Position numbers and translations under genes: made by a program
Assembly (NCBI GenBank): GCA_947626125.1
Contig: CANQRA010000002.1
Span: forward strand, 1 to 61,435
Direction of reading: 5' to 3'
From: an uncultured Bacilli bacterium
GTDB taxonomy: Bacteria; Bacillota_I; Bacilli_A; RF39; UBA660
Length of the DNA stretch: 61,435 nucleotides
Part shown: one piece after another, positions 18,839-25,801 of the stretch
Position numbering within the stretch: the first letter of the stretch is position 1
Layout: every line of letters starts with the position of its first letter
The notes under the pieces: generated by a model
Database searches by the model: none
Seen by the model: only the letters and a program-made list of their open reading frames with translations
Told to the model about the DNA's origin: nothing

Positions 18839-19156
18839 TTAATTAAGACTTCTTTTATTAATTGAACTTTGCACAGCCCATAGTAATATTTCTTGGGGAG
18901 TTAATTCAATACCATTATCACGATTGCTAGAGGCTATTTCACAATATTCACGAATATGTTCTAAGTTATTATTGTAAGTTTCTTCTTCTTTTTCATCAAA
19001 GCATCTAACCGTGGCTGTTAATAAAGCATTAGCAACTAAGTTATCATCAAAGGAATGCTTACCCATAATATTTTTAACAAAGATTAAATAGTATTTTCTC
19101 CATGTAGTAAACAATACTGGCTCATTAAGTTCATTAACTATTTTTTCTAAATCCAT
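18839..19156 (-). CDS. Hypothetical protein, last gene of the sigma-paralog operon
   Basis: 105 aa. RBS AAAGGA. No recognisable motif. Confidence 0.5.
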   Translation of the reverse strand: MDLEKIVNELNEPVLFTTWRKYYLIFVKNIMGKHSFDDNLVANALLTATVRCFDEKEEETYNNNLEHIREYCEIASSNRDNGIELTPQEILLWAVQSSINKRSLN

Positions 19157-19204
19157 ATCTATTATCCTTTCATAGTTATTTATTATATAAAGAAATTAAT
19201 AATT

Positions 19205-20554
19205 TTACAATCTTTTTTTGGCATTTTCCATCATTCTTCTTTTTATATTCTCATCTAAATGAAATAATAAACCGTATCCTTTAGCTTCTAAATCTAGTTC
19301 GAGCCTTTGGTCTTCCCTTACTTTATGATAAAATTTACTGATTATTTTATACTGCATTTTATTTAAAGGTATTAAATTTTCTAAAAATAGCTCTACTAAT
19401 TCCGCCAAAGATAAGCTTAAATAAGTATTTTTTAAATATGCATAACTAATTACTACATCATTTCTAATGCCATAAGTTTTATATATTTTTCCTTGTTCCC
19501 TATCTAATAAAGCATTTTTAAATTGGTTAAACTTGCCCTTATCGGCTAAATAATATTTCATTTTTTCCCCTAAACTTAGTTTAATTAAAGGTATATCTTC
19601 TAAACAAACACCAAGAATAACCGCATAATCCATATCACTGTAATAATACTCCCCTAAAAGTTCTAAACCTAATAATTGGGATTCATTATAATCTAAATAA
19701 GGAAGCAAATATATATATTTACAAATATCTTCGGGATATATAGGCGTTCTTTTTAAATAATTAAGTCTCCCTTTTTCTTTTTTTCTGACCTTTTCATAAA
19801 TATTACTAAATAAGTCATTATCTGCATCTAATAACATTCTAATTTTTTCACAAGTTCTTCCATAATGATTTCCTATATTAGCTTTAGTACAATGAATTCT
19901 TGTGGCGATCATTTCTAGTGTACAATGTTCATCACTAATAACATGTTCATAAAAACAATAATAATGAAAAGGAGTTAAATAAATTCTTAAAACTAGTAAC
20001 AAATCATTACTACTTAATTTATCTAAATAGTTATCTTTACTAGGTACCGAAAAACTTTCTTCTAAAGGCACTAATGCAATATTCATATATCTTCTTAAAT
20101 AATTTAAATTATTTAAAGAAATATTTAATATTTGGCATAACTCTTCATCTGAAGGTAAGCTTTGTTCATGAACTTGACAATATTCAATAATTTGCAAGAA
20201 TTTTTTCTTAGCTAAAACAAGATATCTAGGTAATTTAATAAAATTATTCCTACAACTTAAATATTCTCTCATTTTATTAACAATACATACATTAAGATAA
20301 TTATGAAAGTTGCCTTTATCTAAGTTATAATGGTAAATAGCTTCGACTAAAGCCATATTACCCTCACTTATTAATTCTAATATTTCTGGTTCTTTTAAAT
20401 TTTTATTAAAATGCGTAGCTAGATAAAAAACAAGGCCTAAATTACCATGAATTAATTCTTCATAATCATGATTTTCTATATATTGTCTTTCTTCTATTTC
20501 AGATAATTTTCTATAACTACTAATTTCTTGTTTATACTTTTCTAACTCACTCAT
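19205..20554 (-). CDS. Degenerate sigma-70-family paralog with C-terminal extension (449 aa)
   Basis: Region 2-like LISEGNMALVEAIYHYNLDKGNFHNYLNVCIVNKMREYL. Region 4-like LTPFHYYCFYEHV...TLEMIATRIHCTKANIGNHYGRTCEKI. Extension shares the PI.P.DI.KYIYL plus HTH module with the two upstream paralogs. The start overlaps the upstream stop (ATGA at 20551-20554). Confidence 0.65.
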   Translation of the reverse strand: MSELEKYKQEISSYRKLSEIEERQYIENHDYEELIHGNLGLVFYLATHFNKNLKEPEILELISEGNMALVEAIYHYNLDKGNFHNYLNVCIVNKMREYLSCRNNFIKLPRYLVLAKKKFLQIIEYCQVHEQSLPSDEELCQILNISLNNLNYLRRYMNIALVPLEESFSVPSKDNYLDKLSSNDLLLVLRIYLTPFHYYCFYEHVISDEHCTLEMIATRIHCTKANIGNHYGRTCEKIRMLLDADNDLFSNIYEKVRKKEKGRLNYLKRTPIYPEDICKYIYLLPYLDYNESQLLGLELLGEYYYSDMDYAVILGVCLEDIPLIKLSLGEKMKYYLADKGKFNQFKNALLDREQGKIYKTYGIRNDVVISYAYLKNTYLSLSLAELVELFLENLIPLNKMQYKIISKFYHKVREDQRLELDLEAKGYGLLFHLDENIKRRMMENAKKRL

Positions 20555-25600: not shown

Positions 25601-25770
25601 AAAGTAGTTCTGTCTCCTTTTGCCCAAGCTTCTCTTTGCTCCTCAGCACTTAATAATGGATATGCCGAAATACTATTAATATACATTCTTAAAGAATCAT
25701 TAGTAAAATAGTTTAGTACTTCTTCATCACTAATATTTTCAATCTCTTCAATCTTTTCAATTTCCATCAT
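22612..25770 (-). CDS. SigA-like sigma-70 factor fused to a C-terminal multi-HTH extension of about 770 aa (1052 aa)
   Basis: aa 20-280 form a complete sigma. Region 1.2: [17 protein letters not shown]. Regions 2.1-2.4: [12 protein letters not shown]...[39 protein letters not shown]. Region 3.0: TIRVPIHV. Region 4.2: [24 protein letters not shown]. At least six further region-4-like HTH segments follow. Confidence 0.85.
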   Translation of the reverse strand: [1052 protein letters not shown]

Positions 25771-25792
25771 TATATCACCGCGAATGCCTACT

Positions 25793-25801
25793 ATTATAAC
25801 A
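25793..25801 (-). promoter_or_regulatory. Extended -10 promoter element upstream of the giant sigma gene
   Basis: Minus strand reads TGTTATAAT (TGnTATAAT) about 25 nt upstream of the ATG. The -35 is weak. Confidence 0.5.

Follow-up and report, generated by a model that had tools for sequence, protein, structure and literature searches.

The domain plan of the sigma-70 factors (regions 1.1/1.2, 2, 3 and 4) is among the best studied in bacterial transcription, is treated as fixed and ends at region 4. A locus within a 61 435-nucleotide stretch of DNA from an uncultured Bacilli bacterium (GenBank assembly GCA_947626125.1, contig CANQRA010000002.1, positions 1 to 61 435; the whole stretch is hereafter termed the window) raises the question of whether this plan can be extended. 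A first-pass annotation made from the sequence had described three consecutive minus-strand genes, encoding proteins of 1052, 672 and 449 aa (here S1, S2 and S3), which each open with a sigma-70 core and run on beyond region 4, followed by a gene for a protein of 105 aa (X4). The analysis reported here indicates that S1 is a real and new architectural form within the sigma-70 family. The explanation that we favour, and which taken as a whole (including the roles assigned to S2 and S3) is held to be probable rather than assured, is that S1 is one of a group of giant sigma-70 factors that descends from SigA/RpoD, is conserved and is specific to its lineage, all genome matches being from uncultured gut Bacilli of low G+C content.

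The claim of three sigma-70 cores was borne out by Pfam, in which the cut-off of the region 2 model (Sigma70_r2, 24 bits) was exceeded by S1, S2 and S3 with 63.2, 59.5 and 29.9 bits respectively. S1 exceeded the curated cut-offs for all four models, Sigma70_r1_2, r2, r3 and r4, scoring 81.8 bits for Sigma70_r4 (30.5 bits in S2) against a cut-off of 24.1; the layout was region 1.2 (residues 25–47), sigma-2 (57–122), sigma-3 (139–209) and sigma-4 (215–282). The closest solved relative by sequence was Bacillus subtilis SigA (PDB 7ckq_F), to residues 78–355 of which S1 residues 4–273, covering regions 1.2–4.2, were aligned with E = 1.7e-44, and the fold matches of the full-length S1 model were SigA and RpoS chains with 32–38% identity. 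Residue-level alignment showed that S1 and its long relatives retain the core-binding motif of region 2.2, regions 2.3/2.4, including FSTYA and QAITR, and region 4.2 with its TLEEV, and that S1 has the −35 contact residues of region 4.2 (TRERVRQIE). Judged by these alignments the core of S1 is complete from region 1.2 to region 4.2 and is SigA-like, as had been stated, and S1 is very probably a functional sigma factor.

Unlike SigA, S1 continues for 770 aa after region 4, an extension that reaches ∼900 aa in typical members of its family and that is covered by no Pfam, NCBIfam or PADLOC family. Single domains were detected within it. Pfam yielded, in addition to the full N-terminal set, a second Sigma70_r4 at ∼570–609 (25.2 bits against the cut-off of 24.1) and two HTH_28-type matches at ∼650–680 and ∼789–819, while NCBIfam yielded sigma region-4 matches at ∼542–610 and ∼693–766 and a match to a YlxM-type model at ∼792–827. 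For comparison of the modules (designated M1 to M9) with one another, profiles were cut from an alignment of 100 full-length family members and compared using hhalign. Sigma-4 matched M1 with a probability of 98.2% and M4, M5, M6 and M7 with 94–96%, while M4 matched M6 and M5 matched M7, both with 97.7%, within a range of 94–98% for M4–M8 compared with one another. The direct match of M8 to sigma-4 was only 36%, this module being tied in through M4, M5 and M6 (∼96%); the matches of M2 and M9b were weaker, and no module was matched at 20% or above by the sigma-2 control.

In the AlphaFold models a short helix-helix-turn-helix-long-helix unit, a four-helix pattern, recurs along the tail, and the helices of M1 and M2 were modelled at a pLDDT of ∼85. 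M4, M5, M6, M7 and M8 were assigned as helix-turn-helix (HTH) domains derived from sigma-4 and M9 as a C-terminal helical domain. The proposal that the tail holds at least six further region-4-like HTH segments was thereby upheld by the hhalign comparisons, the Pfam and NCBIfam matches and the predicted helix pattern. On this evidence at least six modules of the S1 tail share ancestry with sigma region 4 and with one another, and there is little doubt that the tail is a repeat array derived from sigma-4, having arisen by serial duplication of that domain.

DNA binding by the array is regarded as possible, on balance rather doubtful. A basic recognition helix (S-i-r-R-R-Y-q-R-A-I) is conserved in M6. 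Several observations weigh against a DNA-binding tail: the average charge of the modules is near-neutral or acidic (M2 and M8 are acidic on the family average and M9a in S1 itself) and basic residues are absent from several of the recognition helices. Model confidence was fair for the tail domains but not for the geometry between them, with a pLDDT of 74.6 and a pTM of 0.37 for full-length S1 and values of 76.2 and 0.52 for the tail alone. The top PDB fold matches of the tail-only model were all sigma factors and were weak (best E = 0.019), with no match at E ≤ 0.001 and no non-sigma fold in the PDB search, which favours a sigma-like tail only weakly and points to no other function. The module charges themselves neither favour nor rule out DNA binding.

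The giant is not confined to the window. A search with the tail alone against 1.84 billion representative proteins returned 202 clusters at E ≤ 0.001, of which 103 were matched at E ≤ 1e-30; the size of the family is given as ∼200 clusters at 50% identity. Most of the matching clusters were of 1150–1250 aa, and an alignment of 11 full-length sequences contained invariant columns all along the tail. The NCBI member MBE6145127.1 is named ‘RNA polymerase sigma factor RpoD/SigA’. When one genome of each GTDB species was scanned, 21 loci carrying a giant sigma gene were located; this number is a lower bound and says nothing about the universality of the family, because the scan used only two peptide patterns, taken from six closer sequences. 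All 21 loci were in gut-derived metagenome-assembled genomes (MAGs) labelled uncultured Bacilli, Tenericutes, Firmicutes or Candidatus Coprovivens, a few of the titles being evidently mislabelled. Candidatus Coprovivens is placed in NCBI as Bacilli incertae sedis, and the group of Candidatus Coprovivens and the other giant-sigma MAGs is one that we take to be GTDB order RF39.

Within this family S1 is a shortened member. Two blocks of 82 and 90 alignment columns, which are kept by 93–97 of 100 members, are missing from S1, leaving a gap of ∼170 residues after residue 692–695. The missing blocks are further sigma-4-like modules, and six clear sigma-4-like copies are present in S1 as against about eight in typical members of ∼1200 aa.

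Most loci carry just one giant sigma gene. None of the 20 loci other than the window contained a triplet of the S1-S2-S3 type: a single giant was found, once two in tandem, and short paralogs were located elsewhere. The tandem pair (L015:3817-11083, plus strand, SVAK01000012.1) consists of two full-length giants of 1210 and 1209 aa, 4 nt apart in direct orientation, and stands between the one-gene arrangement of most loci and the triplet of the window. About one-third of the loci (7/21) had the giant after rplU-prp-rpmA-obg and an unknown 290-aa protein, whereas the surroundings at the other loci were different. A protein of ∼290 aa was upstream in 6/21 loci and an FAD-dependent protein downstream in ∼6/21, and no partner gene was common to all 21.

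Short paralogs of 396–479 aa, composed of the core, M1 and M2, were found in other MAGs, with W434 kept in some of them only. At one locus (L026:8805-12247, plus strand) two such genes (399 and 411 aa) share a 4-nt overlap, with a gene for a 318-aa protein without a family match after them; this pair adjoins recG, is remote from every giant gene and mirrors S2 and S3 with their trailing gene. The occurrence of these short paralogs shows that duplication of the giant gene followed by truncation is recurrent in the clade, and that the triplet of the window is one local outcome. The tandem triplet described in the first-pass annotation is thus real, and is local to a genus-level lineage (the window and one relative at 87% identity).

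In BLASTP, S1, S2 and S3 showed ∼30% identity and aligned collinearly over the core and ∼170 residues beyond it, comprising M1 and M2, to approximately residue 450. A module directly after region 4 and a later LSLEE...YF module are accordingly common to all three proteins, as had been noticed. The second internal copy reported in S2 was also recovered: S2 residues 431–634 aligned with S1 226–434 (E = 1e-11), and also with S3 172–425. S2 and S3 carry only modules of the M1/M2 type. As S2 repeats one sigma-4/M1/M2 unit and S3 stops after M2, the long array is found in S1 only, and the description of a triplicated extension did not hold; S2 and S3 keep the first one or two modules, to which S2 adds its duplicated unit.

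The recognition residues of S2 and S3 were compared with those of B. subtilis SigA. S2 was above the Pfam cut-offs for r1_2, r2 and r4 and just under that for r3 (23.5 against 25.3 bits); region 2.2 is retained, W434 is replaced by R, no recognizable region 3.0 is present, and region 4.2 reads HESVRK for RERxRQ with three of five contacts lost. S3 was above cut-off for r2 only, its region 4 (∼185–245) having no Pfam r4 match and being located by alignment with S1 and S2. Region 2.2 is again retained in S3, W433/W434 are replaced by V/C and Q437 by N, and no −35 contact residue is left. The series VPWIRQ, FFRIKQ and NVCIVNK at the tryptophan dyad of S1, S2 and S3, previously read as a decay of the −10 residues along the array, was confirmed. 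This decay does not imply loss of function, because both S2 and S3 are under purifying selection (see below). By their sequences S2 and S3 are truncated, diverged paralogs that retain an RNA-polymerase-binding core and the first tail modules and have altered −10 and −35 residues. X4 is an acidic orphan protein; it gave no match in Pfam, NCBIfam or PADLOC and no homolog outside its own cluster, in agreement with its description as uncharacterized, and no function can therefore be proposed for it from sequence.

Selection was assessed by comparison with L004, a Logan assembly of a relative in which the same order of mscS, genes for proteins of 1052, 680, 453 and 105 aa, and uvrA was found. Identity to the L004 orthologs was 87% for S1, 84.5% for S2, 80.6% for S3 and 89.5% for X4, with dN/dS values of 0.225, 0.193, 0.241 and 0.276 respectively; values for the flanking genes were 0.01–0.08. 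Within S1 the ratio was 0.056 for sigma-2, 0.061 for sigma-4 and 0.255 for the tail (0.13–0.51 for its modules). Ratios of 0.19–0.28 show that S1, S2, S3 and X4 are all under purifying selection and functional, though faster-evolving than their neighbours.

Whether S1 is the principal (housekeeping) sigma factor of its organism is evenly poised, the arguments on the two sides being about balanced. The promoters of three housekeeping genes in the window are canonical: rpsL has TTGACA, an 18-nt spacer and TGgTATATT, rplK has TTGCAA, a 17-nt spacer and TGgTATGAT, and tuf has TTGAAA, a 17-nt spacer and TAAAAT, so the organism must have a sigma factor that reads promoters of the SigA type. The residues of regions 2.4 and 4.2 of S1 suit such promoters, but the canonical TG-reading Glu is absent. 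In favour of a housekeeping role are these canonical recognition residues, the single copy, the housekeeping locus in many genomes and the RpoD/SigA name given by PGAP. A number of findings weigh against it. Region 1.1 was not found in S1, in which ∼24 acidic residues without a PF03979 match precede region 1.2; W433 is replaced by P (by Pro or another residue in the long relatives) and the equivalent of Y425 is missing. Region 3.0 has HVNL in place of HMVE, with substitution of the Glu by which the TG of an extended −10 promoter is read, although TGn promoters are common in the window. The long relatives likewise have no region 1.1 and no Y425 equivalent, and in them too this Glu is substituted. 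S1 fell below the RpoD/SigA equivalogs of NCBIfam (TIGR02393, 198.4 against 354; NF006666, 197.7 against 572; TIGR02997, 208.4 against 384.5), at less than 60% of the cut-off for every RpoD/SigA/RpoS equivalog model, and lacks three of the six features considered for membership of group 1 (RpoD/SigA). The giant never adjoins dnaG in the loci examined, no dnaG motif was present in the 0.52 Mb examined, and S1 evolves faster than the neighbouring genes.

These same findings are what would be expected if S1 were an accessory, alternative sigma factor beside an ordinary dnaG-linked SigA encoded elsewhere, with the tail as a regulatory or auto-inhibitory appendage that, for example, folds back on sigma-2/sigma-4 or mimics DNA in place of region 1.1; such an appendage would be comparable to the extensions found C-terminally in some extracytoplasmic function (ECF) sigma factors. 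We give this a probability somewhat short of even. The relaxed constraint on the tail relative to neighbouring genes, the acidic modules and the ready duplication and truncation within the family, which is more typical of accessory sigma factors, would also fit, but the −10 and −35 recognition residues of S1 are exactly of the SigA type, the giant is usually in single copy and at 7 of 21 loci occupies a conserved housekeeping site after rplU-rpmA-obg. No second sigma gene was found in the window and no second SigA-type gene in the sequence examined, which amounts to only ∼0.5 Mb, and group-2 sigma factors are, to our knowledge, unusual in Bacillota.

For S2 and S3 a role as bona fide alternative sigma factors, rather than as decoys, is slightly the more probable. 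As decoys they would be ‘pseudo-sigmas’ that modulate S1, either by occupying core polymerase or by using M1 and M2 to bind the S1 tail or its partners, with X4 as a potential small partner. The lack in S3 of the tryptophan dyad, Q437 and all −35 residues, its passing Pfam by r2 only, and the lack in S2 of W434, region 3.0 and three of the five region 4.2 contacts would agree with this, as would the retention of region 2.2 and M1/M2 in both proteins under purifying selection and the translational coupling of the two genes. However, their sigma domains are still alignable and predicted to be folded, there is no sign of an inhibitory role, and alternative sigma factors of groups 3 and 4 are functional without the group-1 residues; the decoy reading is considered unlikely. 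A locus for anti-phage defence or a mobile-element module is far less probable still. The MzaA models of NCBIfam and PADLOC (NF041931/PDLC02203) match S1, S2 and S3, and MzaA is likewise a long (∼700 aa) protein of the sigma-70 family, but the match spans model positions 476–701, the C-terminal generic sigma core, with a score of 183 bits where the cut-off is 800. MzaA has its extra sequence at the N-terminus, and the locus has core-chromosome surroundings (uvrA, mscS, ribosomal genes) in which no other gene for defence was found close by; an MzaA-type defence sigma was ruled out by the failed cut-off and this context. Phage origin was likewise rejected, as an IMG/VR scan gave no relative and fold matches in BFVD were weak and mostly to sigma factors. 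Finally, the gene models might be artefacts (fused open reading frames (ORFs), pseudogenes or misreadings of an alternative code), a concern raised by the probable origin of the window as a metagenome-assembled contig, as judged from close matches that are metagenome assemblies, and by the TGA at which S2 ends. Near-identical gene lengths and order in the independent L004 assembly at 87% identity, ∼100 independent full-length family members and dN/dS ratios well under 1 effectively refute this reading, as does the fit of the standard code: TGA is a normal stop, ending 5 of 47 ORFs, and translation with code 11 leaves the conserved genes intact. Artefactual fusion is scarcely credible.

Under the giant-sigma explanation that we favour, S1 would bind core RNA polymerase and read canonical TTGACA/TATAAT promoters of the rpsL, rplK and tuf type. 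Its tail would remain on the holoenzyme and add contacts, most likely to DNA upstream of the −35 element and by the M6 helix in particular; protein partners are an alternative, and in either case the tail would amount to an activator-like element built into the sigma factor. As tandem truncated duplicates, S2 and S3 would most likely be alternative sigma factors that have a promoter specificity of their own and are in competition with S1 for core polymerase, and S1, S2, S3 and X4 would form one co-oriented unit with a conserved extended −10 box before it and a terminator-like hairpin behind it. A bolder scheme, which we regard as speculative and rather improbable, makes the giant the sole housekeeping sigma factor of an order-level clade of gut Bacilli with reduced genomes, the array a multi-site reader of promoter-upstream DNA that replaces activators or the contacts of alpha-CTD with UP elements, and S2 and S3 truncated competitors that retune or switch the system.

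Sigma factors with C-terminal extensions are known, among them some ECF groups with fused domains and the SigI type. In principle they resemble S1: region 4 is followed by a fused domain, which remains with the sigma factor and is able to modulate its activity. They are, however, group-4 or sigma-2/sigma-4-only factors with a single non-sigma C-terminal domain, whereas S1 is group-1-like with its own sigma-4 multiplied, and the Pfam and NCBIfam scans gave no sequence relationship between the S1 tail and those extensions. The small helical HTH fold of the tail modules is shared with YlxM/UPF0122, HTH_28, LuxR/GerE-type proteins and the sigma-like domain of PhyR, which they match at a sub-threshold or marginal level. 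All of these types are single domains in small proteins, without a sigma-fused tandem array, and by hhalign the tail modules are closer to their own sigma-4.

Five other uncharacterized proteins of 680–970 aa (P0013, P0032, P0361, P0088 and P0084) have RpoD-like cores ∼40% identical to that of S1 and tails of 220–460 aa. By eye, all five tails contain an M2-like ‘IYxYF ... LTEEER.LITLRYG’ module, and all except P0084 have a region-4-like end. They differ from S1 in their long N-termini and in carrying one extra module or at most two, and the representative protein search detected no similarity between them and the S1 tail. The existence of such sigma factors with one or two extra region-4-like modules suggests that the phenomenon may be broader than the giant family.

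The view that the architecture lies outside any described family was sustained, there being no Pfam or NCBIfam model for the tail and no paper describing it: full-text literature searches on the architecture and the lineage retrieved no description of a group-1-like sigma factor with its own region 4 repeated. The mentions of sigma factors in a paper on sporulation in RF39 are limited to sporulation sigma factors (PMC10868615).

The locus thus presents a SigA-type sigma factor whose own −35-reading domain has been multiplied six to eight times, in ∼200 clusters from common uncultured gut bacteria. If it is the principal sigma factor, promoter recognition and regulation in the clade must differ from the textbook model, and it would be a natural sigma factor with tethered activator-like domains; if it is an accessory one, it is still an unannotated family and a new route to extended sigma function. 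As truncated paralogs, S2 and S3 amount to a set of natural deletions with which the function of the tail could be probed.

The coordinates of the genes, modules and candidate regulatory signals are listed in Table 1. The genes mscS, S1, S2, S3 and X4 follow one another on the same strand with spacings of 67, 42, −4 and 48 nt. S3 starts within the ATGA in which S2 stops, as had been read in the sequence; S2 and S3 are translationally coupled. From this spacing and the hairpin after X4, which is likely to mark the end of the transcription unit, we infer that S1-S2-S3-X4 is one operon. The earlier operon claim stands with the qualification that a pattern scan found −10-like boxes ahead of S2 and X4, which could act as internal promoters. 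The candidate −10 box upstream of S1 has no good −35 box in its spacer. The mscS-S1 spacer (25771-25837, minus strand) differs from its L004 counterpart (L004:2583-2649) by one mismatch in 67 nt, as against a synonymous divergence of ∼0.3 in the genes, a conservation that suggests a constrained regulatory element extending beyond the −10 box. A weak hairpin followed by a T-run lies in the same spacer, directly after mscS.

Table 1. Features of the sigma-factor locus, with positions in the window.
Feature	Position	Strand	Basis
S1 sigma gene, 1052 aa	22612-25770	minus	ORF
S1 sigma core, residues 1-285	24916..25770	minus	Pfam, PDB sequence match, alignment
S1 M1 (residues 300-372, sigma-4-like HTH, begins with PIsP.dIikYLY) and M2 (405-472, ‘Y..LSLEE...YF’)	24355..24873	minus	BLASTP collinearity, hhalign
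S1 M3-M9 (residues 476-1040)	22651..24345	minus	hhalign; Pfam/NCBIfam matches; model
S2 sigma gene, 672 aa	20551-22569	minus	ORF
S2 sigma core (1-265), M1 (~288-360), internal second sigma-4/M1/M2 copy (431-634)	20551..22569	minus	BLASTP, Pfam, NCBIfam
S3 sigma gene, 449 aa	19205-20554	minus	ORF
S3 divergent sigma core (1-245), M1 and M2 (~265-425), ends after M2	19205..20554	minus	BLASTP, Pfam
X4 gene, 105 aa, final gene of unit	18839-19156	minus	ORF
Candidate extended −10 element TGtTATAAT upstream of S1	25793..25801	minus	Sequence, L004 alignment, pattern scan (predicted)
Terminator-like hairpin and T-run between X4 and uvrA	18732..18755	minus	Sole minus-strand terminator-like site in 18400-26200

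The remainder of the window is of low G+C content (∼25–35%) and represents a core-chromosome setting, with uvrA, an MscS-type channel, a DUF308 protein, pheST, rplK-rplA-rplJ-rplL with an L10 leader (Rfam), and rpsL-rpsG-fusA-tuf. In B. subtilis, as in many Bacillota, rpoB-rpoC lies between these two ribosomal clusters. In the window rpoB-rpoC is not between them; only ∼3 kb, with three small ORFs of 284, 128 and 306 aa, separates the two clusters (33810-39649, minus strand), another respect in which the genes of the transcription machinery are unusually arranged.

A sigma factor of canonical length was encountered on a 13-kb contig of the Logan assembly SRR31495742 (L030). This 372-aa protein, P0302, is the best canonical-length match to S2; its gene and a second sigma fragment lie among ∼12 genes without a family match, adjoining the gene for a large protein with Ig-like repeats. 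The contig looks like a phage or mobile element with its own sigma factors, and P0302 is therefore uninformative as to a separate canonical SigA.

Two further pairs of similar genes were observed in the window. Just downstream of uvrA (14266-15814, minus strand) two adjoining ORFs of ∼240 aa have similar coiled-coil-like N-termini rich in Glu and Lys, which by eye may represent a tandem duplication. At 43183-46616 (plus strand) the N-termini of two adjoining ORFs (553 and 563 aa) are J-domain-like and closely resemble each other (YEALKVLDLDSNYTEEELNKKYHALAKKYHPD and FDEALNILGLNSNYTEEELKKKYYALINQYYPD); the two ORFs are apparently tandem paralogs, located on the strand opposite to most of the genes.

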